From the NCBI GenBank assembly GCA_965216875.1, contig OZ244207.1, positions 544,001 through 608,000 on the forward strand: 64,000 nt of DNA. Reading direction: 5' to 3'. Source of the DNA: Rubripirellula sp. Its GTDB lineage: Bacteria; Planctomycetota; Planctomycetia; Pirellulales; Pirellulaceae. The notes beneath the pieces are model-generated. The model searched no databases, was not told the origin of the DNA, and worked only from the letters and a program-made list of their open reading frames with translations. This document shows, in pieces, positions 47,494-63,186 of this stretch (the stretch's first letter is position 1; the number at the start of each line of letters is the position of its first letter). The position numbers and the translations under genes were made by a program.

Positions 47494-47567
47494 TAGCTCA
47501 GGTGGGACTCGAACCCACAGCATCTCTGGTTCTAAGCCAAAGTGGTCTACCAATTGCCTACCGAGCC
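47494..47567 (-). tRNA. tRNA-Leu(UAG), short variable loop
   Basis: GGCTCGG/CTGAGCT, loop CTTAGAA, GTGGG TTCGAGT CCCAC. Confidence 0.8.
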
Positions 47568-47584
47568 ATGTTGATTGAACGGAG

Positions 47585-47655
47585 TGGAGCGCCGGGGAAT
47601 CGAACCCCGATTTTCTGCGTGCAAAACAGATGTCTTCCCGTTGGACGAGCACCCC
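47585..47655 (-). tRNA. tRNA-Ala(UGC)
   Basis: GGGGTGC/GCGCTCC with G3:U70, loop TTTGCAC. Confidence 0.88.
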
Positions 47656-47744
47656 ATTTGAAGTTGGAAGTAAGAAGGGTGAAGTGTCAAAGAGGTTCGC
47701 GTTCCGTTTTCAACCTTTGCACTTCACCATTCAAACTTCTCAAG

Positions 47745-47835
47745 TGCCCAGGTCACGAGTCGAACCGGCAAACACTCGGACCCAGTATTCAAGGAATACT
47801 GGGCCGAGTCGCTCTGCCAGTTGGCGTAACTGGGC
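47745..47835 (-). pseudogene. tRNA-Leu-like gene with anticodon loop replaced by a 10-bp hairpin
   Basis: GCCCAG/CTGGGC-A acceptor and Leu-type D arm; CTCGG-[CCCAGTATTC CTT GAATACTGGG T]-CCGAG; T-stem mismatched. Confidence 0.65.
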
Positions 47836-47896
47836 GTCCGATGCTCACCGACCGATGCAAGTTTCTTGCACCGCCCGGCAAGCTGTTTTATAGCGA

Positions 47897-48163
47897 TCAT
47901 TTCAATCGCGGTTGGCTGTCGCCTGTTGCGTTGCGGTGATTGCGAATCGCTTTCCGATAGTCGGGAGTATCCGCGGCATCAACGACCTCATGGCCGACGC
48001 ACTCAACCACCCATCCATCAACCCAGCGATCGAGGTCGTCTTTCAGTTTCAGGACACGACCCAGCTTCGCAAACTGCTGAGGGATGTATGACGTTGTCTG
48101 CACCGAGCCACCGGCGACCGCACGTTTCATCGCACACTGCACGTATTTGACTTGTTTGGCCAT
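47897..48163 (-). CDS. Small hypothetical protein inside the tRNA array
   Basis: MAKQVKYVQCAMKR...TSYIPQQFAKLGRVLKLKD; GGAG RBS; co-oriented with tRNAs. Confidence 0.65.
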   Translation of the reverse strand: MAKQVKYVQCAMKRAVAGGSVQTTSYIPQQFAKLGRVLKLKDDLDRWVDGWVVECVGHEVVDAADTPDYRKAIRNHRNATGDSQPRLK

Positions 48164-48211
48164 CGTCATTCTCCAAGGTTGGCATGAAGCAGCGTCACCG
48201 TGACGCGTGAG

Positions 48212-48259
48212 TAGTCCTGGATGGAATCGAACCATCGTTTCCTGTTTGTAAGACAGGTG
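48212..48259 (-). pseudogene. 3' half of tRNA-Val(UAC)
   Basis: CCTGT CTTACAA ACAGG, GATGG TTCGATT CCATC, CAGGACT-A; D arm and 5' acceptor strand missing. Confidence 0.75.
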
Positions 48260-48262
48260 AAT

Positions 48263-48698
48263 GAAGTTTGAAGCGTGAAGTTCGAAGTTTGAAACGAAGT
48301 TCGGTAGATTGTTGGCATGAAAAGTGACTTGCCTGACCGGACATTTGCGTTTTCCGAGCGAATCGTGCGACTCTGTCTGGCACTGGAGGATGAAAGCGAT
48401 GTCGCTTCAACTCTGATGAGGCAATTGCTTCGGTCGGGTACATCTATCGGCGCGAATGTGGAGGAAGCTCAGGCAAGTGAAAGCAAGCGTGACTTCGTTC
48501 ACAAGTATTCGATTGCAGCTAAAGAGGCTCGCGAAACACATTACTGGCTGCGACTGCTAGCCAAGACCGAGGTCATTCCGCCATCTCGCCTTGAACCACT
48601 CACTGCTGAAGCCAACGAACTGGTCGCAATCCTGACGACAATCTGCAAGAAGAACCGGTGACAATCTTTCAAACTTCGAACTTCACCCTTCAAACATC
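48263..48698 (+). mobile_element. Heptamer inverted-repeat cassette carrying four-helix-bundle gene 1
   Basis: 32-bp IR 48263-48294 / 48667-48698 (30/32 match) around ORF 48317-48661. Confidence 0.6.
48317..48661 (+). CDS. Four-helix bundle protein (23S rRNA IVS protein/TIGR02436 family)
   Basis: DLPDRTFAF, QLLRSGTSIGANVEEA, SKRDFVHKYSIAAKEARETHYWLRLL. Confidence 0.92.
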   Translation: MKSDLPDRTFAFSERIVRLCLALEDESDVASTLMRQLLRSGTSIGANVEEAQASESKRDFVHKYSIAAKEARETHYWLRLLAKTEVIPPSRLEPLTAEANELVAILTTICKKNR

Positions 48699-48702
48699 CA
48701 AG

Positions 48703-48773
48703 CACGTCCCCAAGGATTTGAACCCTGACTTACTGGTTTGGAATCAGCAGTGCTACCGTTACACCAAGGACGC
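48703..48773 (-). tRNA. tRNA-Trp(CCA)
   Basis: GCGTCCT/GGGACGT-G, loop TTCCAAA, T-loop TTCAAAT. Confidence 0.8.
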
Positions 48774-48981
48774 GGGTAAAGTTTGAATTGAGAAGGGTGA
48801 AGTTAGAAGGCGAAGTATCTTCCGCTCATTTCACACTTCAAAATTCCTACGTCGAACTTCCAAGCGCCTCCCGTGTGGAAACGCTCCCAGAATAGGCTTT
48901 AGGTATTAGGTGATTAGACTCTAGGTAAAAGCTGCCTTCTTGCCTGCAGCCTAAACCGCTATGGTCTAAACACCTTCCAAG

Positions 48982-49026
48982 TGACGTGAGCGGGAATCGA
49001 ACCCGCGAACTCCTGGCTGAGAACCA
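48982..49026 (-). pseudogene. 3' half of tRNA-Glu(CUC)
   Basis: TGG TTCTCAG CCA, GCGGG TTCGATT CCCGC; 5' half replaced by a heptamer hairpin. Confidence 0.65.
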
Positions 49027-49131
49027 TAGTGAGACTTCAGGGATCAGGATTCAGACTTCAGAAGTGACCTATTGTCCGACCTGAAGCCTGAAGCCTGAAG
49101 CCTGAAGCCTGAAACCTGCAGCCTGAATCAG

Positions 49132-49203
49132 TACCGCATGGGAGTTTCGATCTCCCTCCTGCTGTTAGAAAGACAGCCGACCTAGCCAGTAGTCGAATGC
49201 GGC
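49132..49203 (-). tRNA. tRNA-Glu(UUC)
   Basis: GCCGCAT/ATGCGGT, GCTGT CTTTCTA ACAGC, atypical T-loop ATCGAAA. Confidence 0.75.
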
Positions 49204-49308
49204 GAAGAAAGGCTTTGGGCTCTAGACCATAGGAAAGACGATCAGGTTCGAGCTAGAGCCTAGAGCCTAGAGCCTAGAGCCTGAGGACTAAAGCCTGCGA
49301 AGCCGAAG

Positions 49309-49383
49309 CGCCGAGGACAGGAATCGAACCTGTGTTTGCCTGGTTCAGAGCCAGGTGCAACGACCAACAGTTGCCGCCTCGGT
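49309..49383 (-). tRNA. tRNA-Gln(CUG)
   Basis: CCGAGG/CCTCGG, CCTGG CTCTGAA CCAGG, ACAGG TTCGATT CCTGT. Confidence 0.8.
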
Positions 49384-49421
49384 GTACGGAAGTTTGAAGT
49401 CGGAAGTTCGAAGTTTGAAAG

Positions 49422-49493
49422 CACGGGTGGCAGGATTCGAACCTGCATACCACTGCTTCAAAGGCAGCTGGCTTACCGTTAGCCAACACCCGA
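49422..49493 (-). tRNA. tRNA-Gln(UUG)
   Basis: CGGGTG/CACCCG, loop CTTTGAA, GCAGG TTCGAAT CCTGC. Confidence 0.85.
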
Positions 49494-49548
49494 GTGTCTG
49501 CGTTGAACGTTTCAAACTTCTAGCTTCCCACTTCTAACTTCCGAAAGG

Positions 49549-49621
49549 CTCCGGCGGATGGGCTCGAACCATCAATCGTCTCCTTAACAGGGAGCCGCCC
49601 TACCGATTGGGCCACACCGGA
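49549..49621 (-). tRNA. tRNA-Asn(GUU)
   Basis: TCCGGTG/CGCCGGA-G, loop CTGTTAA. Confidence 0.87.
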
Positions 49622-49627
49622 GTATCA

Positions 49628-50048
49628 TCAGGCTTCAGGGATCAGGTTTCAGACTTCAGGATCTAGGGGCGAAGATGAGAGACTACAGAAAACTGCGTGC
49701 GTTCGAATTGGCGGATCAGCTTGCAATCGCTGTCTACAAGTGCACGTCATCTTTCCCGAAAGAGGAAATGTTCGGACTGACATCTCAACTTCGACGCGCC
49801 GCTGTCTCCGCACCATCCAACATCGTCGAAGGAAGTGCAAAGTCATCACAAGCTGACTATGTTCGATTCCTCGAAATCTCCTACGGCTCTGTTTGCGAGG
49901 TTGAATATCAGCTGTCACTCGCACAACGCCTGTCGTATCTCGATGAACAAACAGCAACGGAGGTGATCGGCGTCGCCAATGAAGCCGGACGAGTACTCAA
50001 CGGCCTTCTTCGCTCACTGAAGTCTGACTCCTGAAGCCTGAAGTCTGA
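49628..50048 (+). mobile_element. Heptamer inverted-repeat cassette carrying four-helix-bundle gene 2
   Basis: TCAGRCT-type IR 49628-49659 / 50017-50048 (27/32 match); right arm overlaps the gene's stop codon. Confidence 0.6.
49675..50034 (+). CDS. Four-helix bundle protein (23S rRNA IVS protein family)
   Basis: MRDYRKLRAF, FPKEEMFGLTSQLRRAAVSAPSNIVEG, FLEISYGSVCEVEYQL. Confidence 0.93.
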   Translation: MRDYRKLRAFELADQLAIAVYKCTSSFPKEEMFGLTSQLRRAAVSAPSNIVEGSAKSSQADYVRFLEISYGSVCEVEYQLSLAQRLSYLDEQTATEVIGVANEAGRVLNGLLRSLKSDS

Positions 50049-50051
50049 CCA

Positions 50052-50122
50052 AGCGCCCAGCGAGAATTGAACTCGCGTCTTCTGCATGGCAAGCAGATGG
50101 GTTACCACTACACCATGGGCGC
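50052..50122 (-). tRNA. tRNA-Gly(GCC)
   Basis: GCGCCCA/TGGGCGC-T, TCTGC TTGCCAT GCAGA. Confidence 0.88.
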
Positions 50123-50212
50123 AAAATGCATCACAACCAGATTGTCAAAGATCGGATCAGGCTTCAGGTCTCAGTCTTCAGACTTCAGTTTTCTTGCTGA
50201 AGTCTGACAAAG

Positions 50213-50283
50213 AGCACCGAGTCGGATTCGAACCGACGTCCCCTCGTTACGACGGAGGGATCTTCCCACTAGACGATCAGTGC
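50213..50283 (-). tRNA. tRNA-Thr(CGU)
   Basis: GCACTGA/TCGGTGC, loop GTCGTAA (31:39 mismatch), GTCGG TTCGAAT CCGAC. Confidence 0.72.
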
Positions 50284-50427
50284 TGGAGTCAGGTGTCAGG
50301 CTCCAGGCTCCAGGTTCCAGGTACTAGGCTTCAGGTTTGAGGTTTCTGTTCCTTGCTGAAGTCTGAAGTCTGAAGTCTGAAGTCTGAAGCCTGAAGCCTG
50401 AAGCCTGAAGCCTAAAGTCTGCCCAAG

Positions 50428-50500
50428 TGGGACCGGTGAGAATCGAACTCACATGAGTCGGTTTAAGAGACCGGTGCATTACCTTGTCTGCCACAATCCC
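50428..50500 (-). tRNA. tRNA-Lys(CUU)
   Basis: GGGATTG/CGGTCCC-A, loop CTCTTAA. Confidence 0.85.
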
Positions 50501-50531
50501 AAATTGTGTTTTTGTCGTTGATTCGTTTCAG

Positions 50532-50604
50532 TCGGCGTGGCGGGAATTGAACCCGCGACCGTCGCCTTATAAGGACGCCGCTCTCACCCCTGAGCTACAC
50601 GCCG
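50532..50604 (-). tRNA. tRNA-Ile(UAU)
   Basis: CGGCGTG/CACGCCG-A, canonical D arm, loop CTTATAA. Confidence 0.82.
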
Positions 50605-50616
50605 ATGTGTAGCAAG

Positions 50617-50637
50617 TGGGGCCGGAGAGATTCGAAC
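50617..50637 (-). pseudogene. Displaced 3' end of the split tRNA-Lys(UUU) (att junction)
   Basis: Minus strand GTTCGAATCTCTCCGGCCCCA completes the T-stem (GAGAG) and acceptor (GGGGTTG) of the 5' part at 62716-62773. Confidence 0.85.
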
Positions 50638-50676
50638 CTGTCTCGTTGCCAACGGAACTTCTCACTGACTCTGGAG

Positions 50677-50748
50677 TAGGATTGCAGGGACTCGAACCCC
50701 GACCCAACCGGTTAAAAGCCGGTGATGCTGCCGTAACACCTCAATCCC
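50677..50748 (-). tRNA. tRNA-Lys(UUU) carried by the element
   Basis: GGGATTG/CAATCCT-A, ACCGG CTTTTAA CCGGT, CGGGG TTCGAGT CCCTG. Confidence 0.85.
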
Positions 50749-50788
50749 AAATAAAAAACCCAGTGCCGTCGTGTGACACCGGGTTTTG
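50749..50788 (-). terminator. Intrinsic terminator-like hairpin immediately upstream of the element tRNA-Lys
   Basis: Minus strand AAAACCCGGTGTC-ACACGAC-GGCACTGGGTTTTTTATTT. Confidence 0.55.
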
Positions 50789-51086
50789 TTGTTTCCAGCA
50801 ACAAAACGCCAACGTCACCGACGAAGCGGATACCAATCCAATCCATTCGCACCGCAACTGCGGGCGAGCGAATCGCTATTCAGATTCTGTTGTGTCGATT
50901 GCATTGGTATTGACCGCTACTTCTCTCGGTTTAGTGATTTTCGTTTGTCGTCCAATCTCAGGCCGACGGAACAATAGACCAGCGAGCGAAAAGAAGGTTC
51001 GCGTCGCTGACAGGAATAGAGATGCTTGGGGCGATATGGTTATTTCACGGTTTTCTGAAAACCGGGCAAAGTCACTTGGTAGCTGC

Positions 51087-52061
51087 TCATTCAGCCTCAT
51101 CATTCGGATCGTAGTCCAGCGATTGGAGATTCATCCCTTCAAGCAATGGTCGCGGATACCAAGCAGCGATACCAAACGCGTTTCCGTCGGTGTCAAAGCA
51201 TCCAGGACCGCCTAGCTTGTAGCCTGACTCGAAGTCTGGGTCGGCTTCAAATCGGCTAAGTATCACCCCAAGAAAAAAAGGCATGTGGGGGACTTCCATG
51301 ATCCGAAGGTCGAATCGAAAACTAAACTCACCCTGAAACGGGAGTTCGCGTCGAAGGATGTAGTTGCCGTTTGTTGTCGTTGCCGACACCAACTCAGACA
51401 CGGGGAACATAAAGAATTCCAGATTGTATGCCGTTGACGTTGGCAACCCGGCATACAAGGGATGATGCCAGAGGTCACCGGGTCGAAACGTCTCAGCGTG
51501 TTTGCCTCCGCGTTCGACGAATTTATCAAGCCCTTGAAATATCAATCCGCAAAGCGGTCCAGAGGTGACGTTCACAGAAGTGGGGGCTTTCAGGCCAACA
51601 CCCCTTATTTGCTCAAGTTCCCGGTTGTACCCAGACACAATCGGTCGACCGGAACTCGAAAACTGAACAAAGCCGCCCATGTGAAGGCTTAGCTTGACCC
51701 GGTCGCTGACAGTAAAAGTGGCGGATTCGTGTAGCTTCTGTATCGACTGCTTCTGCGAATAGTCGTAGGGGATTCTTAGGACCAGTCCATCGGTTACCGG
51801 ATGATATGGGACAGACAAATGAAATCCGTCCCTCAAGAATCCGATACGCGCAATAAGCCGCTCACGACCGTCTTCGCCTTCAACGGCAACACGGTAGCCT
51901 TCCCCAATGTGCTTTCTCACTTTTCGAGAACTTTGACCGACCGCCTCTACAGCGCGGCGCAGGCGAGATTTGGATACTCCGATCGCACCCGCGTAATACT
52001 GCAAAAGCCAATCCTCATTGGGATCGATATTGTCTGGGATATCCGAAATGATCATGCGCAC
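51087..52061 (-). CDS. Hypothetical protein with N-terminal DUF3606-like domain
   Basis: IDPNEDWLLQYYAGAIGVSKSRLRRAVEAVG resembles DUF3606; the rest is unrecognised. Confidence 0.65.
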   Translation of the reverse strand: MRMIISDIPDNIDPNEDWLLQYYAGAIGVSKSRLRRAVEAVGQSSRKVRKHIGEGYRVAVEGEDGRERLIARIGFLRDGFHLSVPYHPVTDGLVLRIPYDYSQKQSIQKLHESATFTVSDRVKLSLHMGGFVQFSSSGRPIVSGYNRELEQIRGVGLKAPTSVNVTSGPLCGLIFQGLDKFVERGGKHAETFRPGDLWHHPLYAGLPTSTAYNLEFFMFPVSELVSATTTNGNYILRRELPFQGEFSFRFDLRIMEVPHMPFFLGVILSRFEADPDFESGYKLGGPGCFDTDGNAFGIAAWYPRPLLEGMNLQSLDYDPNDEAE

Positions 52062-52081
52062 GAACCAAATAACTCAGAGTA

Positions 52082-52672
52082 CTAGAGACCGACCATGCGA
52101 TTCCAGTCAGCAACATACATCTCGATCCGATGAAACTCACCAGGCAACAGCAGTCGGTTGTGAGCCATAAAGTTCCGGGCCTTTTCAAGCTCGTCAAATC
52201 GTTGCTTCAACCAATGCTGCGTCGGAATCAGGTCTGAGAAATCCTCCCAGTTGTTGAGGATGATGTCGGCAAGGTGTCCAAATTGCACGAATCCCAGAAC
52301 GTCACGCTTCTGGCCTTCGAGCCACGAGTTGGTGTTCGCGTCTTCCTGACGTGCTTCCGCAAACTCACGGATCTTCTTTGTCACCTTATTGTCCCACCAA
52401 TCATCTCCATACTGCTCTTGGAGGCGTTGCGTGATAAGGGATCGCACAGAATTCTCGAAGCAGTAGACCAAGGAATAGAGTCGTCCCATTTGTAACGCTT
52501 CATTGCGAAGGTCAATGCTAAAGGGATCCAGTGTTTCGTTGAGCAACGCGCGCTCGGATTCAGTCGTGTCGGCCCCAACACGGATGCCGGCAGATCGAAA
52601 GTGTTCCGCGTCCGCTTCGAACATCAGACCTCGAAACATCCAGTCCCTAACTTCCTTTCGTTCAATCTTCAA
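52082..52672 (-). CDS. Swt1-like HEPN domain protein (putative RNase)
   Basis: YCFENSVRSLI, YGDDWW, LEKARNFMAHN (Rx4H). Confidence 0.85.
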   Translation of the reverse strand: MKIERKEVRDWMFRGLMFEADAEHFRSAGIRVGADTTESERALLNETLDPFSIDLRNEALQMGRLYSLVYCFENSVRSLITQRLQEQYGDDWWDNKVTKKIREFAEARQEDANTNSWLEGQKRDVLGFVQFGHLADIILNNWEDFSDLIPTQHWLKQRFDELEKARNFMAHNRLLLPGEFHRIEMYVADWNRMVGL

Positions 52673-53297
52673 TTAAGTGCTCCTTCAGTGATTTAAAGAT
52701 GGCATTATAGACTTCGATATCTTTGGTAGGCGGAAGGTGTATTTCGATGTTGTATCGAAGTCCACCAAACGCCGGCATTTGAACTTGGCTTGTGTCCGCC
52801 TTTGCTTCCTTGTCTGGCGATTCCCCGCGGTCTTCAGTTCCTTGATTCTCATCACCCGTTGGTGCCCCATTTCGTCTTGCGGCATCAAGGTCTGCGAGGT
52901 CGAGCAAAGCAAAAAACGTTTTTGCTTGCTCTTTCGCGACCCTATCGGATGCGTTGTGAAATGACTTAAATTTTCCCTCAATCGAAGCGCGATCCGCTTC
53001 CGTAGGGTTCTCATTGACGTGGAACACCTCTTCGTACGCTTCGTGGAGTGCTTCTGCCATCACCTCACGTGATCGCGATTTGTCGCGGTAGTCATGGTAG
53101 CGCTGCGTTGGACTGCCATCGCCGGTCAAAAACCCGAGGTCCTTAAGCACAGGGATGATCCCCATGTCATTGCTGCTCTTGAAGCCAATCCCCTTGAGAT
53201 GTGCCTGGGAGAATTTCTCTGGCGCGGTACCCTCGATGATCTTTTGCATGATCGCGTGCAGGTTTTTGGTGCTGGTCATGTAGCGTGAAGTCAACAA
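52662..53297 (-). CDS. DUF5343-like protein
   Basis: PEKFSQAHLKGIGFKSSND, LGFLTGDGSPTQRY, C-terminal YNIEIHLPPTKDIEVYNAIFKSLKEHL; overlaps HEPN gene. Confidence 0.75.
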   Translation of the reverse strand: MLTSRYMTSTKNLHAIMQKIIEGTAPEKFSQAHLKGIGFKSSNDMGIIPVLKDLGFLTGDGSPTQRYHDYRDKSRSREVMAEALHEAYEEVFHVNENPTEADRASIEGKFKSFHNASDRVAKEQAKTFFALLDLADLDAARRNGAPTGDENQGTEDRGESPDKEAKADTSQVQMPAFGGLRYNIEIHLPPTKDIEVYNAIFKSLKEHLIED

Positions 53298-53576
53298 TTT
53301 GATCTCCCTTCTCGTTCTCGTGGTATGGAGGGATTGAATAACTATTCAGCGAGTACAGACCCAGTCTACATTTATCTGGTTCGCGCCCGCAATCGACCGC
53401 GTATGGCGGGAGATGGCCCGGATATCGACCACTCCCCGTCAATGGATTTAGAACGAGCGTCGATTCTAAATCGTCGGGTTAGGTAGCGGCGGCTGCCGTG
53501 ATGGATCGACGTTCGGCATTGGCTTTCTGCTGGGCGTCGATGCATCGGCCCATTCCCCAGCCGGAAAGCCATTCTG

Positions 53577-54953
53577 ATGATCGAAAACCCATTCTTGCGT
53601 GACATGGAATCCTATCTCTACACCGTAGGCTTTCCGCCGCCTGACTTCCTTGACTTCGCGGATGCGATGGTGCTGCCCAGAATCGACCTGCCTTTCAAGC
53701 AAGCCAGCAAGATCAAGGAAAAGCGATGGGAAGCGACCTGCTGCGCCCACAACCTGATCTACGCGGGGCTCGTCAATCGGACGGTTGCGGACTCCCGTGA
53801 TGGCAAAGGCAAATCACGAGCTCGCGTCTGGGACGCGATCATCAAGGCCGGATTCGCTGATAGATGTACTGGGAGCGAGCAATCCGGCAAAGTGACACGC
53901 TATTACCCTCGTGCCAAACTGCTGCGGCTTCGGAAGCAGTGGAAATTGGATTTGCTGATCGACCTTCAGCTAGAACGCAACACTGAACGTCCACACGATC
54001 CAACGAAGCAAGCGTTGGTCCTCCTGCATAGCAGCAAGGTCGATCCAGTCACAGGGCTGAAGTTGGACGAGTTGGATCAAAAGCAACCGCTGTCTTTTCA
54101 CGACTGGGCAAAGAACGAAGCCGGACCACGGGGGATGCAGAGCGGACTTGAGTACGTACAAGCGATGGAGGATCTGATCGAACGAATCAACCGATCCAAC
54201 CTGCGGCATTCCTGGCAGGCATTTCACGTCAATCCCATGAGCAGCAAGGAAACGGCATTTCAACCCAATTCATGTGTCAGACAGATTCACGTCGGTGAGA
54301 TGTTTCGGGGCACGCGACTCTACTCGTGGTCACTGCTGTCCGGCCAGAGCCTACCGAAAGAAGATCGCAAGCGAATGCTGATCGATGGCGAGCCGGTAGC
54401 CGAGTTTGACTATTCAGGTATGGCGACGCGGATGCTTTACCACCGAACACGTCTGAGAGGGCCCAAGGGCGACGTGTACAAGCCGGACGAATTGTTCCCA
54501 AGGTTTTACGCGTTCGAACCTAGCCCCGAAACGGCCGAGATCGTGCGTGAATTCGGGAAACGGGCCACGAACATCTGCTGGAACGTTTCCAGCCGAGCCA
54601 ATGCAAATTCGGCGATCAGCAAACTGATTACCGATCATCCCGATCGCGACCTGATCGAATCCGTTTTGAAATCGGAGGGGATGAAACGCACCGATGTCGT
54701 GACACGCATCCAAGCAGCCCATCCGAAACTGGCCGAGGATTTCTTTTCAGGAGTCGGAATCGAACTGATGACCGTTGACGGCAGCATTATGCTCCGCATT
54801 CTCGAAACGTTTGCCGACGCCGATAAGCCAGTGCTGGGCATTCACGATTCCATCGTGGTACGCGAATCAGACCGCAGGTTTGCCAGGCGAACGATGAAAG
54901 ACGCTTACCGCCGATTCATGCTTTTTGAGCCCGTGATCAAACGTGTCTATTAG
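53577..54953 (+). CDS. Stand-alone PolA-superfamily polymerase (TV-Pol-like)
   Basis: RLY...QSLPKEDRKRMLIDGEPVAEFDYS (motif A), LMTVDGSIM, VLGIHDSIVV (motif C); no exonuclease domains evident. Confidence 0.65.
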   Translation: MIENPFLRDMESYLYTVGFPPPDFLDFADAMVLPRIDLPFKQASKIKEKRWEATCCAHNLIYAGLVNRTVADSRDGKGKSRARVWDAIIKAGFADRCTGSEQSGKVTRYYPRAKLLRLRKQWKLDLLIDLQLERNTERPHDPTKQALVLLHSSKVDPVTGLKLDELDQKQPLSFHDWAKNEAGPRGMQSGLEYVQAMEDLIERINRSNLRHSWQAFHVNPMSSKETAFQPNSCVRQIHVGEMFRGTRLYSWSLLSGQSLPKEDRKRMLIDGEPVAEFDYSGMATRMLYHRTRLRGPKGDVYKPDELFPRFYAFEPSPETAEIVREFGKRATNICWNVSSRANANSAISKLITDHPDRDLIESVLKSEGMKRTDVVTRIQAAHPKLAEDFFSGVGIELMTVDGSIMLRILETFADADKPVLGIHDSIVVRESDRRFARRTMKDAYRRFMLFEPVIKRVY

Positions 54954-55472
54954 GGTCTTCGTAACTCGTTGCAAAAGCCCGAGTTACGAGTTTTTGGCGG
55001 GGTAATATAGGAATAGAAATCCCGAATAGAAAACCCAACCGCCCCCCGCCCCTCCCTCCGCCCTCCCCAAAGGAGGGCGGAAAGGGAGGAAGCGGAACGC
55101 GGAAACGGATGAATAAGAAACGAACCCAACGTTAGACGTGTTACGGTTGCACGGTAGACGTCATCAGCACGTGGCACGTCCTAGACGCTGTCGGAAGTCG
55201 TAGACCCAACGTCCTGCGTCGGTACGCCTTTTGGTGCCTTATTGGGCGTTCGTGCGTAAAAAAAGATGAACTTTTTTAAGTTGTGCCGCAGCAAGCGTTT
55301 GCGTCAACGCAATATGCGCAATTGACGCGTTTCTGAGCGCATCAACGTGTTTTTCTGGGCGCATAACTCAGGGTATCCAGCGATATAGATGTGCACGGGA
55401 TGATTCATCGTCGAATTGCCCATACACGAACTCGGATCGTGTAGAGCTCTACACGCTAAGACTGAGAGCATC

Positions 55473-56144
55473 ATGCCAAGGTATCGAACGCCCCATTGGA
55501 CCGACGGACGAATCGCGAAGCTGCATGGAAGTGCACTAACCAGACGGTTCGCCAATCTTGCCGAGGTCGCGAATAAGTACCACAGGATATGCGCTGAGAA
55601 TGAGCAGTCAGCTTTGGATTGCGCCAAAAAAGTAGGTGATGCTCTGACCGAGGCCAAGCGTCGGTGTGGTCATCGCAAGAAGTGGTCGAAGTGGCGCAGC
55701 GACAACTTCGCTGGATCAAAAGAGACTTCATGCCACTACATGCGAATCGCTCGTGAATGGAACAATCCCAAAATCCGCGAGGCGATGGCACGCGGTGAGA
55801 TCAAGAGTATCAACCAGTTTCTCGCGGTGCTTCGCAGAAAGGGAAATCCCAAATCGCAAACGACAGCGGAACAACGACACGTAATCAGGCTATTCACGAA
55901 ACTTGCCAAAGATCTGAACTGGGCCGACCAAAACCGTTTGGCAATGCATAGCACGGCCCAGGACGTAATGCCCAAATTGAGTGATTTTTTGCTAGAAGTA
56001 CTGAAGGGGTATCCAGTTCCACATCTGGTCGAGGTTTACCCAGGAGAGTACGAGATCAACTACTACGATGACGGCGATCAAGCTGAGGTGACCATGCCTC
56101 CTGGTATCAAACCACGCACCCAAAAAAGAGCCAAAAACCGGTAA
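55473..56144 (+). CDS. DUF3102-like phage/MGE DNA-binding protein
   Basis: ALDCAKKVGDALTEAKRRCGHRKKWSKW...SKETSCHYMRIA. Confidence 0.65.
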   Translation: MPRYRTPHWTDGRIAKLHGSALTRRFANLAEVANKYHRICAENEQSALDCAKKVGDALTEAKRRCGHRKKWSKWRSDNFAGSKETSCHYMRIAREWNNPKIREAMARGEIKSINQFLAVLRRKGNPKSQTTAEQRHVIRLFTKLAKDLNWADQNRLAMHSTAQDVMPKLSDFLLEVLKGYPVPHLVEVYPGEYEINYYDDGDQAEVTMPPGIKPRTQKRAKNR

Positions 56145-56208
56145 TGGCTAAGGCTACCTATCAGCCGGATTCCTTTTCCATGATTGGTCCTGTGTCTTGG
56201 AATGTGGA

Positions 56209-57279
56209 TCAGGAGTTCTGATAAACTGCACGGCCAACCTTCAGCACATCGCGGCGATAGTCGCGATCCCACCTTGAAAAGCGCTCCATAGTTCTTTCGT
56301 CTTGGTGTGCAGCGAGAACAAGAACAGCACACCAATGGTCGACATCACCCATCGCATGTTTATGTGAATCAGCGAACATCTCGAAAACTTCTTTTGCGCG
56401 AGGCACGGATTTTCTCAATACCGCGTCCAACTCGCCGAGGGTCGAGATTTCGGTTGCTTTGCACGCTGCAAGCAGATCTTCAGAGTCAGGCTGGGCTCTT
56501 GCCGCTTTGAGCTTACTCTTGGACACCGCGTCCATAACATCACGCACAATGCTCGCTTCTTCGCAGTACTGCTCGATCGAAATCGCGTTAATTTCAATCT
56601 TCAGTGTTTTGTCCGCCAACTGCTCGGACACTTCCTTAGCAAGTGATTCTTGCTGCGCCTTTAAGCTCGTAAACTCGTCGTCGGCTAACTCAAACAACCC
56701 TGCAAGTCTCATGAGACGTCGCCGAAACTTGGATGGAACGTCAGATTCGCGCTTGTATTGCAAATGATGGGAAATTGCCGCCCATGCGTGCTGAAGAACT
56801 GTCCTTACCTGAATTTCGCACACCAATCCCACGAACGCATCCCATTCTGGCAACTTCGCCCGAGCATCGTTGAGCGATACGACTAGGTGGACGGACAGAT
56901 ACCCAAACTGATCTGCATCCAATTCCGACGATTTATCAATGCTGCGTGCGTCATCAACCTCGAACTCGTTCCGCAGAATCTTGGTAACTTCATCTACGTC
57001 CTCTTGGTAGTACAGAATCACGCGAGCGCCTGCGAGGTCGGGCAACTCATCAAGCGGGTTCGTGTAGGATTTGCCGGGTCGCTGAATCTTTTCCGCAAAA
57101 CTCTCAATACTCTTTGCACGTGATTCAGTGGTGTGGTGCGGGATCGAGTGTTTCTTTATCAGTTGGAGAATCAGCAATTCGATGCGGCGAGCAAATTCTT
57201 GAATTCGAGGTTGCATCATGCCATAGTCGGCGACCAATTGATCATGATCCGTTGCATTTCTCCGGCGTTTTTTTCCCAT
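56209..57279 (-). CDS. RelA/SpoT-domain (small alarmone synthetase-like) protein
   Basis: SRAKSIESFAEK, DLAGARVI, GYLSVHLVV, EIQVRTVLQHAWAAISHHLQYK. Confidence 0.88.
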   Translation of the reverse strand: MGKKRRRNATDHDQLVADYGMMQPRIQEFARRIELLILQLIKKHSIPHHTTESRAKSIESFAEKIQRPGKSYTNPLDELPDLAGARVILYYQEDVDEVTKILRNEFEVDDARSIDKSSELDADQFGYLSVHLVVSLNDARAKLPEWDAFVGLVCEIQVRTVLQHAWAAISHHLQYKRESDVPSKFRRRLMRLAGLFELADDEFTSLKAQQESLAKEVSEQLADKTLKIEINAISIEQYCEEASIVRDVMDAVSKSKLKAARAQPDSEDLLAACKATEISTLGELDAVLRKSVPRAKEVFEMFADSHKHAMGDVDHWCAVLVLAAHQDERTMERFSRWDRDYRRDVLKVGRAVYQNS

Positions 57280-57698
57280 AGATCCTTTGCTCAACAAGAG
57301 ACTGCAGTTAGGCCCACGGCGGGGATACCAATACTTGTTCCGCTGATGGTCGTAATGTAACAGGGTGCGGCTATAGATGCGAAAGCGCTACGCTGGGGTA
57401 GGGATCGCAGTGGCTCAGTATCAGTATCCGGCAGCGGCACCGCATTCCGCACCGTGATTCACGGGGTCAGCGTCATCCGTGATCCGCTCACGACGATCTA
57501 TAGATGAAACTGGCCATCGGTTCGGAGCTGCGCTAGAAAACGGGTCCAGGTACGCGAGAGATATTCGCGGCCAACGGGAGCGACGCCTAACGCTTTGCCT
57601 TCCGTATTCGCCCGAAGCGTCGCATAGGAAATGCAAACGCCGTAGAGCGCGATTTAGAACGCCTACGCGACGTGTTCTCCAACGAAAGGAGCCAACCG

Positions 57699-58322
57699 AT
57701 GCCGAAACAGAAACCCGTTGCGATCTATGCCCGTGTCAGCTCGCAGAAGCAGGACACCGCCAGCCAGTTGCCGGACCTGAAACGCTGGGCCGATGCCCAA
57801 GACGCGGACGTGCTGTGGTTCGAGGACGAAGTTAGCGGCACGACGATGGACCGACCGCAATGGTCTGAGGTCGCCAAGCTGATTAGCGCTCGAAGGATCT
57901 CAGCCGTTGTTGTTTGGCGGTTGGATCGTCTTGGACGTAACGTCAGCGGGCTTTCCAGTTTGTTCGATGAGATGCGGGCCAAGGGCGTTGATCTGGTCAG
58001 CCTGAAAGACGGTCTGACGTTATCGACGCCAGCCGGACGATTGATGGCTAACGTCCTCGCCAGCGTTGCACAGTTTGAAACGGAGATCAGAGCCGAGCGC
58101 GTGTTGGCTGGTCAGGCGAAGGCGAAAGCGAACGGCAAGACGTGGGGCGGAAGCAAGCCAGGTGTGCGGAAGAAAGTAACGCAGGAACAGATCGATGCGA
58201 TTGAGATGCTGTACGACGAGGAGATGTCTACTGCCGCCATCGCACGAACGGTGAAGCTCGGACGAAACACCGTAGCCAGCGTTATTCGCGAGATTCGAGA
58301 AAACTCCCCTTTTCGTAAATGA
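57699..58322 (+). CDS. Small serine resolvase/invertase with C-terminal HTH
   Basis: IYARVSS, VWRLDRLGRN, TPAGRLMANVLASVAQFE. Confidence 0.92.
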   Translation: MPKQKPVAIYARVSSQKQDTASQLPDLKRWADAQDADVLWFEDEVSGTTMDRPQWSEVAKLISARRISAVVVWRLDRLGRNVSGLSSLFDEMRAKGVDLVSLKDGLTLSTPAGRLMANVLASVAQFETEIRAERVLAGQAKAKANGKTWGGSKPGVRKKVTQEQIDAIEMLYDEEMSTAAIARTVKLGRNTVASVIREIRENSPFRK

Positions 58323-58362
58323 ATGGTGGTTGGCGGCCTGATGCTTGTCATACGTTCCGCGT

Positions 58363-58737
58363 ATGACGAGAGCCAAGAGCCACCGAAACGAACTACCTTC
58401 CAAATACGAGCGGGGATTCCTGAAAGGACTGGACCGACGTACGCAAATCTACGCGCGGCTGACTGCGATACACGATGAAATCGTGGACGATCTGGGCGGC
58501 AAGGATGGGCTATCGCATACGAAGCTCGCATTGATCGAACGCTTCGTATTTCTTGAAGCCGTGATCCAGAAGATGGAACTGGACATGGCCAAGTCCAAGA
58601 CGCTCAATGGCGAGGAGCTTAATCGCTGGATCCAAGGCCTGAACTCAATGACGGGTCTGGCCAAAACGATCGGCTTGGAACGCCGCCAACGAGCGGTCAA
58701 CGTTCGCGACTACGCCAAGAAAAGGGCCGCGTCATGA
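58363..58737 (+). CDS. Putative terminase small subunit
   Basis: Small helical protein overlapping the TerL start (ATGA); call rests mainly on position. Confidence 0.5.
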   Translation: MTRAKSHRNELPSKYERGFLKGLDRRTQIYARLTAIHDEIVDDLGGKDGLSHTKLALIERFVFLEAVIQKMELDMAKSKTLNGEELNRWIQGLNSMTGLAKTIGLERRQRAVNVRDYAKKRAAS

Positions 58738-60137
58738 ATATCGTCCAAGCGATTAAGGATGAAAACCTGATCCAGCCTTTCTTGGGCGATGACTTGAGTT
58801 CTTGGCGTCCATGGGTATCGGCCCTCCGTGTGATGTATGGGTTGCCGTTGTCACGGTCCGATCGCATCCGAGCGAGGAAATGCACCGGACGCGATCCGGC
58901 AGGGATGCCGGCGGAGGGCTTTGATACTGCTCTTTTCCTGACCGGCAGACGTAGCGGCAAGTCGCGTATTGCATCGGTGATCGGTGCATACGAGGCGATC
59001 CTGGCGGGTCACGAGGATCGGCTGTCCAAGGGTGAACAAGGCGTCGTGGCGGTCTGCGCTCCAACGAAACACCAAGCCCAGATCGTGAAAAGCTATCTGC
59101 GTGCGGTGTTTGATTGCGGCTTCCTTCGCCACGAGGTGAGCAGCGATACCAGCGACGGGTTCAGCCTGAACAACGGCAACCGCATCACGATTCTCGCTGG
59201 CGACTGGCGAACGATTCGCGGGTTCACGTTGATCGCCGCCATCATCGATGAAGCTTGCTTTTTCGGATACGACGCAGAGTCAAAAGTCCGCAGTGATACG
59301 GAGCTCGTGCGGGCGATCAAACCGGCACTGGCAACGGTGGGCGGCAAGCTGATCTGTATCAGTAGCCCATACGCCAAGCAAGGCTATTGCTTCCAGCAGA
59401 CGAAGAAGCAGCACGGCAACGACAAAGGCAAAAACCTTGTCTGGTGGGCCCCATCGCAAACGATGAACCCCACGCTTCCGCAAAAGGCAATCGATGACGC
59501 CTTGGCGGAGGATTACGCAGCGGCACGTTCTGAGTATTTCGCCGAATTCCGTGATGACGTGGCCGCGTACATTTCCCGCGAAGTCGTGGAACGGTTGGTC
59601 GTGTCAGGTCGCACGCGACTATTGCCCAGACCAGATACGCGTTACTTCGCTTTCGCTGATATGAGCGGTGGGCGTGGTGACGCATCCGTGTTGGCGATTG
59701 CCCATCGCGAGGACGGCAAGATTGTCCTCGATTCCATCGTTGAATTCAAACCGCCATTTAACCCGATCGACGTGATTGAAACGTTCTGCGACGAGCTTCG
59801 GCGTTACCGATGCGGCAGGGTGATGGGCGACAACTACGCGGCTGAATTCGTCTGCCGGACCTTCAATGGTTTCGGCGTGCGCTACATCAAATGCGAGAAG
59901 CCCAAAAGCGTCCTGTACGCCGAGCTTCTGCCTCACTTATGCGCCGACGGTCTGAGTCTTCTGGATCACCCTCCGATACTAGATCAGATAGCCGGTTTAG
60001 AACGCCGTACACGAAGCGGAGGGCGTGACATTATCGACCACCGACCGGGAGCCCATGACGACGTTGCCAACGCGGTAGCGGGCGTGGTCGTGGCGGCCAC
60101 CAAACGCGGTCGCAAATTCGGAGCCATTTGCAATTAG
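58734..60137 (+). CDS. Terminase large subunit-like protein
   Basis: Walker A GRRSGKS, Walker B AIIDE, ISSP, nuclease DMSGGRGD and HDDVANA. Confidence 0.82.
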   Translation: MNIVQAIKDENLIQPFLGDDLSSWRPWVSALRVMYGLPLSRSDRIRARKCTGRDPAGMPAEGFDTALFLTGRRSGKSRIASVIGAYEAILAGHEDRLSKGEQGVVAVCAPTKHQAQIVKSYLRAVFDCGFLRHEVSSDTSDGFSLNNGNRITILAGDWRTIRGFTLIAAIIDEACFFGYDAESKVRSDTELVRAIKPALATVGGKLICISSPYAKQGYCFQQTKKQHGNDKGKNLVWWAPSQTMNPTLPQKAIDDALAEDYAAARSEYFAEFRDDVAAYISREVVERLVVSGRTRLLPRPDTRYFAFADMSGGRGDASVLAIAHREDGKIVLDSIVEFKPPFNPIDVIETFCDELRRYRCGRVMGDNYAAEFVCRTFNGFGVRYIKCEKPKSVLYAELLPHLCADGLSLLDHPPILDQIAGLERRTRSGGRDIIDHRPGAHDDVANAVAGVVVAATKRGRKFGAICN

Positions 60138-60146
60138 GAGCATGGA

Positions 60147-60659
60147 ATGAACGACAACGAGTTTCGCCGACAGAAGCTTGCCGATTACGAAGCGAGGCAC
60201 AGCAAGCCGGATCATCCGCCCCTGCTCGTCGGTGGCTGGGTGTATTACCCGGATGGAGCCGCACGTGAAAAGAATCCTTGGGCTGGTGCTTGGTGTGAGC
60301 CTGATCCTGATCCGCTAAGTCGAGCGAAAACGATTTTGTTCTATCACGAGAAGCGGTTGGAGTTCGCGGTTACGGAATTCCAGTATCTCAAGAGCAGCCT
60401 GAAAGCTCAGGCCAAGTCCGAATACCTGGGCCGTCCCTGTCCGCCGAATAGCCTGGTTCAACGCGAAGGCATGCGGAAGCTCAAAGACATGAAAAGCAGT
60501 ATCGAGGTCCTTCAACGGCGATTTGAAAAGGCCGAGCAGGAGCTGAAAGAGATCGAAGACAACCACCCATCGTCGAGACGGCATCAACAGCGACGTGATG
60601 CCGAACACCGACAGACTGCCGAGGAGTTCGTCGCTGAAATCAACGACATCGAGATTTGA
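60147..60659 (+). CDS. Hypothetical coiled-coil protein
   Basis: AGGAG upstream; follows TerL in an operon. Confidence 0.65.
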   Translation: MNDNEFRRQKLADYEARHSKPDHPPLLVGGWVYYPDGAAREKNPWAGAWCEPDPDPLSRAKTILFYHEKRLEFAVTEFQYLKSSLKAQAKSEYLGRPCPPNSLVQREGMRKLKDMKSSIEVLQRRFEKAEQELKEIEDNHPSSRRHQQRRDAEHRQTAEEFVAEINDIEI

Positions 60660-61092
60660 AAGGATCGATCCAATGACGTACGTACGCAACGTTAGACAAT
60701 CGCCGAAACCTTTGGAGCGCCCACCGGCTTTGTTTATTGATGAGACCATCTGTGGACCCCGTGCTTCAGGTCGGGAACTGTCTCGCCCATCGCTTCAGTC
60801 GGGACGGCAAGCGACCGGGAGTATCGGGATCGCCATGAATCAGCTTTCGCCTCCCGCGAGGCTTCCCAGTGCCCCGAGGTTTTTCAGTTAGATGCGATCA
60901 CGGCTGCGCATTCGGGGGTGTCCTCTGTGGTTCGTCTCATCTACCCGGAAGTGCCACGCCGCGAGGTGTGCGCTAGCGTAGCCGTAGGGCGGCAAGGTTG
61001 GAGCTTGATCACTCCGATCGGACCAACTAACTGCACGACGGTTGGTCAGCCGCCCTTTTCTCTCCCTGTGTCGTGCGAAAGGTCGTGCAACT

Positions 61093-62739
61093 ATGTCCAA
61101 GAAGCGCAAACGCCTTATCAAGGCTGTTGCTTACCTCCGTCGCTCTACCACAGACCAAGAGGCGAGCCTCGACGAGCAACGTGCAACCATCATCGCCTAC
61201 GCCAAAGCGAACGGATACAGAATCATCCGTTGGTACGAAGACGACGGCATAAGCGGCGATGATACGGAAAAGCGTGTCGGTTTCCTTCGCATGATCGACG
61301 ATGCCACGTCTGGCGAATTCAAATTCATTCTGTGCTGGGACCAGGATCGCTTTGGGCGGTTCGACAGTTTAGAAGCCGGTTACTACATCACACCAATCCG
61401 AAACGCCGGAGTTCAACTGGTAACGGTGAACGAAGGGCCGATTGACTGGAACAACTTTGCCGACCGTTTGACCTACAGCATCAAACAGGAAGGCAAACAC
61501 CAGTTCCTCCGCGACCTATCACGCAATGTCCTGCGAGGGCAAAGCGAGGCGGCGAAGCAAGGAAGTTGGATCGGAAGCCCGCCGTACGGTTATCTCCTAG
61601 AGGGCAACTGCAAGAACAAACGACTGGTCGTTGACGAGCCCAGAATGGCGATCGTGCGACGGTTGTTCAAAGAATACGTAGACGATGGACGTTCGCTTTC
61701 AGAGATTGCCAAACGCCTCACGGACGAAGGCGAGCCAACGCCTAAAGGTAAAAGGCAATGGCGTGGTGACACCGTGAGATTCCTTTTGGCGAATCCGGCC
61801 TACATCGGCACGTTCCGGTACAACACTGCCGGGAGCTCCAAGTACCACAGTTTCAGGCGTGGAGCAATTGCACAAGGCGGTTACCGAGGACGCAAGCCAG
61901 TAGAGGATTGGGTCGTGATTCCGAATCACCACCCAGCCGAGATCGACAAGGACGCCTTCGATCGTGCTCAAGCGATGATCGCAAAGAACCGAAACGGGCA
62001 GACCAATTATCCAGCAGGCGACAATCCGTACATCTTCAGCGGCGTGTTGCGTTGTGGTCGATGCGGTGCGTTGATGATTGGCGACGATGGGAACCGCTAT
62101 CGATGCGGCAATCGTCGAGCGAAGAAACGGTGTTTGGGAACGGTCGTGCGTGAGGACCATCTGCTGGAACATCTGACGCGTACGCTCAACAAGCATTTGA
62201 TCGACGATGATCCTGAAATGCTGGCCGCTGAATGGTCTGCCGATAGATGGGAACTGCGGCCAGAGGATGTCCCAAAGACGTTCGAGCGAATGCGTCGAAT
62301 CATGAAAGGAAACGACGGCAGGGATTTCGCGAGGGACGCGAAGCGACTGCGGGCCAAGATTGCAAAGATTGATACACAGCTCGCAAAGCTGCGTCGCAAC
62401 ATCGGGTACGTCGATGATCCGGCAACCATTACCGTCATCTCAGAGGAGATTGAGAAGCACGAAGAAGAACGCGGTACATTGCAGCGGCAGATCGAATCGC
62501 AGCCAACGGAGATCAACGTCAACTACGCGGTGCTGGACCTGATCGGGGACATGATGCACCTGCATTCCGGCAACAAGGCCGTAGTGCGTCGCGTGGTCCG
62601 AGAGGTCGATCGGATCACCGTTCACACGCATCGACGCGGAAAGGGGAATGGCACGCGACACCGCCTCAAGTCGATAGAAATCACGTGGCTAGGAGTGGGG
62701 CCGACTGCGAGTAAGTCGAACTCTCGCCGAACGGATTAA
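61093..62739 (+). CDS. Large serine recombinase (integrase)
   Basis: AYLRRST catalytic Ser, DRFGR, recombinase domain (PPYGY, NPAYIG), zinc ribbon CGRCG...C...C, coiled coil; C-terminus crosses the att core. Confidence 0.93.
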   Translation: MSKKRKRLIKAVAYLRRSTTDQEASLDEQRATIIAYAKANGYRIIRWYEDDGISGDDTEKRVGFLRMIDDATSGEFKFILCWDQDRFGRFDSLEAGYYITPIRNAGVQLVTVNEGPIDWNNFADRLTYSIKQEGKHQFLRDLSRNVLRGQSEAAKQGSWIGSPPYGYLLEGNCKNKRLVVDEPRMAIVRRLFKEYVDDGRSLSEIAKRLTDEGEPTPKGKRQWRGDTVRFLLANPAYIGTFRYNTAGSSKYHSFRRGAIAQGGYRGRKPVEDWVVIPNHHPAEIDKDAFDRAQAMIAKNRNGQTNYPAGDNPYIFSGVLRCGRCGALMIGDDGNRYRCGNRRAKKRCLGTVVREDHLLEHLTRTLNKHLIDDDPEMLAAEWSADRWELRPEDVPKTFERMRRIMKGNDGRDFARDAKRLRAKIAKIDTQLAKLRRNIGYVDDPATITVISEEIEKHEEERGTLQRQIESQPTEINVNYAVLDLIGDMMHLHSGNKAVVRRVVREVDRITVHTHRRGKGNGTRHRLKSIEITWLGVGPTASKSNSRRTD

Positions 62740-62773
62740 AAGTCCGTCATGCTGCCAGTTACACCACAACCCC
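62696..62773 (-). pseudogene. 5' part of host tRNA-Lys(UUU) fused to an element-derived 3' end
   Basis: GGGGTTG...ACGGA CTTTTAA TCCGT...GAGAG TTCGACT, then TACTCGCAGT CGGCCCC-A. Confidence 0.8.
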
Positions 62774-62881
62774 AAAGTAGGCTTTAGGTATGAGGCGTTT
62801 AGAATTTAGGCATGACAGCTGGACGCTTCGCATCGTTTCTCTCCTTTCAAACTTCACTCTTCCAGCTTCAAACTTCCGCAG

Positions 62882-62953
62882 TGGTAGCCCTGGGAATTGA
62901 ACTCAGCGCGACTCGGTTATCAGCCGAGTTTGGGCAACCAGCCCTCGACTACC
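62882..62953 (-). tRNA. tRNA-Ile(GAU)
   Basis: GGTAGTC/GGCTACC-A, CTCGG CTGATAA CCGAG; atypical D arm. Confidence 0.75.
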
Positions 62954-63064
62954 GTTTGTCAGGCGTCAGGAATCAGGCCTCCGACTTCAGGAGAACTTCC
63001 TGAATCCTGAATCCTGAATCCTGAATCCTGACGCCTGACGCCTGAAGTCTGACTCCTGCATTAG

Positions 63065-63137: not shown

Positions 63138-63186
63138 ATCGTCGACTTCTGACGCCTGATACCTGAAGCCTGAAGTCTGTATAAAT

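Follow-up and report, generated by a model that had tools for sequence, protein, structure and literature searches.

Large serine recombinases (LSRs) act on short attachment (att) sites with a central 2-bp crossover, the inner part of each half-site being read by the recombinase domain and the outer part by the zinc-ribbon domain (ZD), and the well-studied members of this family insert into protein-coding genes or repeats. For the LI integrase of Listeria, Rutherford et al. (2013) placed the ZD motif at positions 16–24 of the half-sites of the element site (attP) and at positions 11–19 of those of the host site (attB), a shift of 5 bp toward the center in attB relative to attP (excerpts of PMC3783163). 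Here, we describe an LSR gene, int, whose att site lies within its own coding sequence, at the edge of an island in a 64,000-nucleotide (nt) stretch of DNA from Rubripirellula sp. (Planctomycetota; assembly GCA_965216875.1, contig OZ244207.1, positions 544,001 to 608,000). This whole stretch, called the window below, is part of a single 8.26-Mb contig (G000:C1), and positions are given in window numbering.

The int product has the domain order of the Listeria A118/LI, SPbeta, phiC31, and Bxb1 integrases, namely a resolvase catalytic domain, a recombinase domain, and a zinc ribbon with a coiled-coil insertion. Its predicted att sites appear to be short like those of phage-type LSRs, with only 6 bp of identity and imperfect dyad symmetry, and a distal motif is displaced 5 bp outward in attP versus attB, as in the LI integrase (excerpts of PMC3783163). 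Unlike in the phage-type enzymes, the target here is the T-loop of a tRNA gene, and the left half of attP is inside the integrase's own coding sequence. Relative to those enzymes, an AlphaFold2 (AF2) model of int shows two additional C-terminal strands that form a module behind the coiled coil, and sequence similarity to the solved LSRs stops at the zinc ribbon.

The placement of an att site in an integrase coding sequence has precedents. The att site of myxophage Mx8 is within the coding sequence of its integrase (IntP/IntX), which obtains a new 3′ end upon integration (excerpts of PMC6070905), and in fuselloviruses of the SSV type integration splits the integrase gene that contains the att site (PMC4383910). 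This placement is the feature in common with our locus. However, the Mx8 and SSV enzymes are tyrosine recombinases that act on sites with long attP/attB identity and regenerate the tRNA, whereas the locus in the window encodes a serine recombinase, does not regenerate the tRNA, and would exchange only a short disordered tail. The locus also shares with Islander-type islands, which use a tyrosine integrase, its placement between a tRNA part and a displaced fragment and the position of the integrase gene at the island edge. In contrast to those islands, there is no restoring copy of the tRNA end, the identity is 6 bp, the tRNA gene is broken, and a complete spare tRNA is carried. We found no published tRNA-targeting serine integrase in the open-access papers searched, although the supplementary tables of TIGER/Islander and of Durrant et al. 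may list cases; by a text search, the main text of Durrant et al. (2022) does not contain the word tRNA.

An integrase-encoding island in a split tRNA-Lys gene

The int gene is called at 61093..62739 on the plus strand (548 amino acids from an ATG at 61093), and its open reading frame (ORF) is open from a TTG at 61042 (61042–62739, 565 amino acids). The product matches the Pfam families Resolvase PF00239 (E 3.2e-25, residues 28–176), Recombinase PF07508 (3.4e-23), and Zn_ribbon_recom PF13408 (3.4e-09), and residues R16, S18, C321, C324, C338, and C347 (548-amino acid numbering) are invariant in an alignment of 39 int homologs. The AF2 model, obtained with a 39-sequence alignment, has a mean predicted local distance difference test (pLDDT) score of 84.4 and contains long paired helices (residues 394–502) between the zinc ribbon and the C-terminal strands; the closest solved relative is the SPbeta integrase (E 2.8e-17). 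The catalytic serine is in an N-terminal resolvase domain, and the recombinase domain is followed by a zinc ribbon with an inserted coiled coil. This domain architecture is that of a serine recombinase, with nothing to indicate tyrosine recombinase chemistry, and by this measure the enzyme is an LSR and not a tyrosine integrase. We identified no candidate for a directionality factor. A second LSR in the same genome (L002, G000:C1:5641595–5642956) is 42% identical to int over residues 24–501, and no tRNA gene is present within its 4.4-kb locus.

The island is 12,084 bp long (50636–62719, measured from central GA to central GA). When 50612–50635 were joined by script to 62720–62775, the product was a canonical 74-nt tRNA-Lys(UUU) cloverleaf: the acceptor stem is 7 bp long, the T stem is 5 bp long, and its loop reads TTCGAAT. 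Uninterrupted copies of tRNA-Lys(UUU) are found at L004:1502–1575, in another tRNA array of this genome at a distance of 25 kb, and at L099:1485–1558, in a genome of the same genus without an integrase match; around the former copy, the order of genes (Lys CUU, Met/Ile, Lys UUU, and Ile-like) matches that at the split gene. Both copies are identical to the reconstructed attB in the left arm, the core, and the first 13 nt of the right arm, and relative to the split gene they carry a few substitutions in the anticodon and D arms. By sequence comparison, the boundaries of the insertion are shown to within 6 bp, and the island is placed in the T-loop of an array-borne, supernumerary tRNA-Lys(UUU) gene.

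At the left junction (attL), the host side (50615..50635, minus strand) is the displaced 3′ fragment of this gene, made up of the 3′ half of the T-loop, the T-stem, the acceptor 3′ strand, the discriminator, and 2 trailer nt. It doubles as the left half-site of attB, the arm that is identical in L004 and L099. The element side of attL (50636..50660) is the right half-site of attP. At the right junction (attR), the element side (62693..62718) comprises positions 26–1 of the left half-site of attP and lies inside int codons G551–S559 (565-amino acid numbering), and the host side (62718..62773, minus strand) is the 5′ part of the split tRNA-Lys(UUU) and also the right half-site of attB. The split tRNA-Lys was absent from an Rfam search of the uncut whole region and appeared only after cutting at the crossover, when 62718–62773 matched positions 1–54 of 71 of the tRNA model, flagged as 3′-truncated (33.3 bits, E 5.2e-06).

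An earlier note on this stretch had proposed that the att site lies inside the integrase gene, that integration rewrites the integrase C-terminus, and that the codons at this site mimic a tRNA 3′ end, without naming the kind of integrase. The observation behind these proposals is real, and every sequence statement in it was verified. The crossover falls within the int ORF, and everything after Ser-559 (565-amino acid numbering) is replaced. In the integrated form, the protein ends ...SKSN SRRTD, the last 6 codons (62722–62739) being host tRNA DNA read in the antisense direction, and the TAA stop (62737–62739) is the complement of U35-U36-A37 in the anticodon loop of tRNA-Lys(UUU). In the circular form, reconstructed by joining the element side of attR to the element side of attL, the protein would end ...SKS NLSRCQRNFSLTLE* at a TAG (50677–50679) that is antisense to the 3′ end of a tRNA gene carried by the island. 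In the window element, the exchange is thus between 6 residues when integrated (NSRRTD) and 14 when circular. The dyad CGAG-N4-TCGAAC-N4-CTCG, also described earlier, was found in the reconstructed attP.

The same layout is present in related elements. A search of 151 genomes of the same family gave 10 with a match at E ≤ 1e-60 (the genome of the window, G000, counted), and 5 of these 10 carry a full-length int homolog that is 46–49% identical. All five close homologs adjoin minus-strand tRNA arrays, and each of the five ORFs extends past a T-loop core into the 5′ portion of a tRNA gene. The targets, with anticodons read off printed sequences, are Lys UUU (twice), Lys CUU, Gly GCC, and Trp CCA. 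None of the five more distant LSR loci (the L002 paralog and four others) adjoins a tRNA array. Four further members came from a scan of public genomes, with targets Lys CUU (twice), Arg ACG, and Val CAC, so the ten elements together occupy tRNA genes for Lys UUU, Lys CUU, Arg ACG, Val CAC, Gly GCC, and Trp CCA. The attL of G049 was not found within 40 kb upstream, and the G086 contig was too short.

Among the 70 loci of the public contig scan, ARAGORN placed a tRNA beside the end of the ORF only in L028, L029, L030, L032, L033, and L096; the tRNA targets of L035 and L040 were recognized only by reading their junctions. Because few of the scanned loci show a tRNA at the ORF end, the tRNA habit belongs to a subclade and not to all Planctomycetota LSRs. 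In a distant LSR group (L049:1921–2020, L075:6549–6648, and L076 at about 3400–3503; 33–40% identity), the ORFs end ...SR(G/D)(G/E)(G/R)I* and overlap the 3′ end of an intact tRNA-Pro(GGG), and the upstream DNA contains GTAAGTCGG, which resembles the inner attP motif of the int clade. In this group, crossover may take place at the 3′ end of the tRNA, with the gene left intact.

A probable recognition motif displaced by 5 bp in attP

The identity block common to attL and attR is TCGAAC (6 bp; 50632..50637 and 62716..62721). Within it, the crossover dinucleotide is most likely the GA at 50634–50635 and 62718–62719, which corresponds to tRNA positions 55–56. We take GA as the center because GAA is common to the attL/attR identity blocks of four elements, and because the motif AGTNGG then falls at the same positions in both attP arms of the related elements G029, G045, G054, and L032 (the intersection and the L032 positions come from manual reading of printed junctions and our own count).

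The repeat on which the proposed mimicry had been based is present: AGTGGGGCCG occurs at 50615–50624 and at 62694–62703, 7 nt (attL) and 12 nt (attR) from TCGAAC, and this difference is the “5 extra nt” that had been noted in a putatively restored acceptor strand. With GA as position 1, this exact 10-mer occupies positions 25–16 in attP-left and 20–11 in attB-left. A direct match of at least 10 nt between the two 92-nt junction segments was found in 11 of 2000 shuffles. The 7 nt beside the core are alike without any shift (GAGTAAG versus GAGAGAT). On the right side, CCAACGGA (50649–50656, attP positions 15–22) and CGAACGGA (62728–62735, attB positions 10–17) agree at 7 of 8 positions; a shift of 5 was the best of shifts 0–8, and this score was reached in 13 of 5000 shuffles. 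Comparing whole arms at different shifts was uninformative, because the displacement affects the outer part of the half-site and not the inner part. Because the motif positions fit the published rule, the 5 extra nt are the offset expected between attP and attB of an LSR. This offset was found in both arms of the window element, and the left arms of G045 and G054 agree.

Comparison across elements separates the motif from any particular tRNA. AGTNGG is at positions 25–20 of attP-left in 7 of the 10 elements, which target tRNAs of five different anticodons, and one-mismatch variants (TGTGGG and AGTCGC) occupy these positions in 2 of the 10. It is also at positions 25–20 of attP-right in 4 of the 5 elements with a mapped attL, in an arm that lies outside int and never adjoins the acceptor strand. 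In L032, our reading of the printed sequence is that the motif is unable to pair with the acceptor strand of the target. In four mapped hosts, positions 20–15 of attB-left, a stretch that consists of the two trailer nt, the discriminator, and the end of the acceptor stem, read AGTGGG, AGTGAG, AGCAGG, and AGAGCG. Since the motif is kept across targets with different acceptor stems and in attP-right, AGTGGGGCCG is best read as a ZD-type recognition motif rather than as tRNA repair, and the claim that int codons mimic the tRNA 3′ end does not hold. The perfect 10-mer of the window would be the clearest case of a general pattern of protein-DNA recognition, with binding by the enzyme predicted from the position of the motif.

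Based on these comparisons, we propose that 62690–62739 is attR and that the LSR of the island inserted the 12.1-kb element into the T-loop of tRNA-Lys(UUU). In this Planctomycetota clade, an attP left half-site of ∼26 bp would begin directly after the last folded β-strand of the integrase, and the int ORF would continue through the half-site as a disordered tail that, after integration, finishes in host DNA; for tRNA-Lys targets, the stop would be the TAA antisense to U35-U36-A37. The zinc-ribbon domain would read a motif that attP-left and attB-left must each contain, placed 5 bp more distally in attP, and this offset would be how LSRs distinguish attP from attB. Because of the offset, attP could not reproduce the tRNA 3′ end exactly, and the target tRNA would be destroyed and not regenerated. 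The requirement that the attP half-site differ from attB by this offset would also explain why the elements break a tRNA gene and why many bring a spare. In the window, the loss of tRNA-Lys is presumably buffered by an intact tRNA-Lys(UUU) gene carried on the island (50676..50748, minus strand; called by ARAGORN; Rfam tRNA, 51.4 bits), together with two other intact genomic copies; we infer the compensating role of this cargo tRNA. Taken as a whole, with an LSR island in a T-loop, a ZD motif offset, a destroyed tRNA, and a passive exchange of the tail, we consider this explanation probable.

Several points weigh against it. Recombination by the enzyme, the position of the crossover, and excision are predictions from sequence comparison. 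The 5-bp rule applies cleanly to the left arms but, among the right arms, only to those of the element in the window, as attB-right and attP-right of G029, G045, and G054 have only 2–3 matches at a shift of 5, and one of the ten elements, L013 (G049, Trp target), has no similar motif in attP-left. The anticodon of the cargo tRNA is that of the target in 3 of 6 elements (G000, Lys UUU; L032, Lys CUU; L040, Val CAC), but G045 has a Lys UUU target and a Lys CUU cargo, G029 has a Gly GCC target and a Lys UUU cargo, and G054 has no cargo tRNA. Finally, a disordered tail can act as a degradation or interaction signal, and we infer that the tail of int is neutral.

The exchanged tail, its transcript, and the hybrid tRNA

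Judged by the ORFs of the related elements, the exchange of the int C-terminus is real and is a property of the clade. In the AF2 model, the last strand ends at W532 of 548 and residues 535–548 have a pLDDT below 50; this predicted disordered tail corresponds to 62695–62739 and starts where attP-left starts. The integrated-form tails of the related elements, 6–24 residues long, are the antisense of whichever tRNA was hit. Of 120 database homologs listed, 109 are full-length, and 37 of these end ...VG......N followed by 5 residues, typically NPHxxG (a regular expression for the ending matched 41, from which 4 without the VG...N context were dropped). These 37 endings probably represent read-through into tRNA-Lys, since family members of known DNA sequence that share this ending sit in tRNA-Lys, with the stop TAA opposite U35-U36-A37. 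Other recurrent endings form smaller groups, one of which (..NLLNRVS) was traced to tRNA-Arg(ACG) in L035.

Such state-dependent C-termini could be functional, with NLSRCQRNFSLTLE and NSRRTD altering the stability, activity, or directionality of the integrase in a way that locks the prophage in or limits re-integration. The ORF crosses the crossover in all five close homologs and apparently in dozens of database homologs, and in Mx8, where attP is also within int and integration makes a new 3′ end, the altered protein has a modified specificity (excerpts of PMC6070905). However, only 6 versus 14 terminal residues differ in the window element, these are in the segment with a pLDDT below 50, and no conserved structural element is removed. 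The earlier note had made its idea depend on conservation of the tails in homologs, and the circular-form tails of five elements, with 14, 20, 19, 33, and 26 residues, are dissimilar; they share only a two-residue [N/Y/H]-F, present in 4 of the 5 and encoded by the attP-right DNA motif (our own reading). We judge a function of the tails to be unlikely, and a functional tail switch is unsupported by these data. The change of tail is most likely a passive by-product of a compact layout: because the tail is predicted to be disordered, the circular tails are unconserved, and the integrated tails follow the target tRNA, the difference between the two proteins would be incidental.

The exchange might instead matter at the level of RNA. 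Upon integration, int would lose its own 3′ end and terminator and face convergent transcription from the tRNA array, and it would be silenced, whereas in the circle it would face only the cargo tRNA gene. The plus-strand int gene is indeed convergent with a minus-strand tRNA array on its 3′ side, with the same orientation in all five homologs, and circular int would run into the cargo tRNA in antisense and then into a terminator-like hairpin at 50755..50787 (minus strand), a pattern-scan prediction between the minus-strand genes of the island and the cargo tRNA. This hairpin was scored as a terminator on the minus strand only, and its action on the plus strand is a guess. No sigma-70-like site was found in 50550–51150, and the orientation of int follows automatically from the location of attP and so is by itself no argument for selection. 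Silencing of this kind is, in our estimation, quite improbable.

At attR, ARAGORN calls a hybrid tRNA-Lys at 62699–62772. In its fold, the acceptor stem is shifted and contains a G.G mismatch, and of the 5 T-stem positions, 3 form Watson-Crick pairs, 1 forms a G-U pair, and 1 is unpaired. With flanks present, Rfam gave no tRNA match for the hybrid at E ≤ 0.1, and the suggestion that the hybrid may partly fold is not borne out by these calls. The hybrid is, as far as tRNA models can tell, not a proper tRNA, and the target gene is broken and not regenerated. It is therefore very improbable that int codons supply a new acceptor 3′ strand and that the hybrid tRNA-Lys folds and is charged: the motif is complementary to the acceptor 5′ strand in the window element alone, and, set against that and the ARAGORN call, there are the poor fold, the Rfam match that requires a cut at the crossover, a motif that is kept where acceptor stems differ and in an attP arm that never abuts the acceptor strand, and a complete tRNA-Lys(UUU) brought by the island. 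The earlier interpretation is thus partly supported, in that its topology holds, its mimicry does not, and its function for the tail lacks support.

Cargo tRNA, tRNA arrays, and island content

The cargo tRNA-Lys(UUU) lies 38 nt from the TCGAAC core at attL, between the halves of the split tRNA. The cargo modules of G000 and G045 have 86% mean column identity, whereas their integrases are only about 47% identical. By our own count, the cargo tRNA (50672–50700) has AGTAGG at positions 20–15 from the GA of its own T-loop, as in attB-left, and it could be a secondary landing site. Because the cargo has this attB-like geometry, the spare copy may be a portable attB, and an offset that forbids regeneration of the tRNA may be the reason that elements carry a whole spare copy of a preferred target. 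A broader scheme, in which Planctomycetota LSR elements use arrays as landing pads, carry a whole spare target as a portable attB, and, through repeated insertion and decay, reshuffle, break, and add array tRNAs, seems to us rather doubtful.

ARAGORN makes 99 tRNA calls in the genome of the window. They comprise two arrays (G000:C1:591000–594748 plus 606699 onward, and 628016–632638), a cluster of 6, and 48 calls that stand alone or in groups smaller than four. With 31 tRNAs in 4.6 kb, the second array fits the tRNA array unit of Tran et al. (2016), for which a minimum of 20 tRNA genes and a density of 2 per kb or higher are required (excerpts of PMC4758250). On the minus strand of the window, 14 tRNA calls lie across 47000–50748, the last of which (50676–50748) is inside the island, and more lie from 62699 to the window end, with ordinary protein genes and finally the int ORF in between. 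For the array that holds the island, the window thus shows 14 ARAGORN calls on the left and 3 or more on the right. Most tRNAs of this array score 31–60 bits with Rfam, and two ARAGORN calls have no Rfam match. Several spacers between the array tRNA genes are filled with runs of tandem 7-nt repeats, for example of the CCTGAAG and CCTGAAT types (50300–50420, 62990–63050, and 63140–63180). We found no publication on tRNA arrays in Planctomycetes among the open-access papers searched.

tRNA-Lys(UUU) is called four times in this genome: as the cargo, as the hybrid, in the second array, and at a dispersed locus. By our own reading, the D-arm is canonical in the dispersed copy, whereas the array and cargo copies share an unusual one. 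CCA is not encoded in any of the seven ARAGORN tRNA-Lys calls in G000; after the discriminator A comes CTC in the cargo and hybrid copies and CT(T) in the others, and this trailer is part of the attB-left motif.

Besides int and the tRNA, the island contains candidate defense genes, a terminase-large-subunit-like gene, and a small serine invertase. A DUF5343 and Swt1-like HEPN pair matches PADLOC PDC-M34A/B (E 3e-76 and 1e-69) and is a candidate anti-phage defense pair, and a RelA/SpoT-domain protein matches PDC-S33 (E 2.5e-19) and is likewise a candidate; these genes are located at 52082–53297 and 56209–57297, both on the minus strand. The terminase-large-subunit-like gene is at 58734–60137 (plus strand; phrog_2, 3.6e-24), and beyond it no virion genes were recognized on the island. 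The small serine invertase/resolvase (57672–58322, plus strand; PHROG DNA invertase, 5e-52) was considered as the integrating enzyme and rejected, being of the invertase/resolvase type and far from the junctions. The island may be a phage-satellite-like or decayed element. The viral contigs scanned with the integrase gave no relative, and hence no free circular or phage form was seen. Four sequencing runs contain the queried stretch in full, all of them as contigs, and no RNA run is listed among those with the stretch. A sequencing run labelled as another organism (X5) contained 34% of the sampled words of 60500–63000, which may reflect a related element or array elsewhere.

For the insertion of large DNA, serine integrases are the tools mainly used, and most natural targets known for them are protein-coding genes. 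This range would be widened by a clade that recognizes the T-loop and acceptor region conserved among tRNA genes. The occurrence of the 5-bp offset in several natural elements supports the model derived from the LI integrase and shows that attP and attB can be predicted from sequence. The locus also calls for caution: even where codons, an att site, and tRNA-like sequence overlap conspicuously, DNA recognition can be a sufficient explanation. Few genetic tools are known for Planctomycetota, and, with att sites that are well defined and present in many members of this phylum, the enzyme could serve as a ready-made integration vector. For the elements themselves, the offset suggests a reason why the targeted tRNA gene is broken and why a complete spare gene, not a 3′ fragment, is carried.

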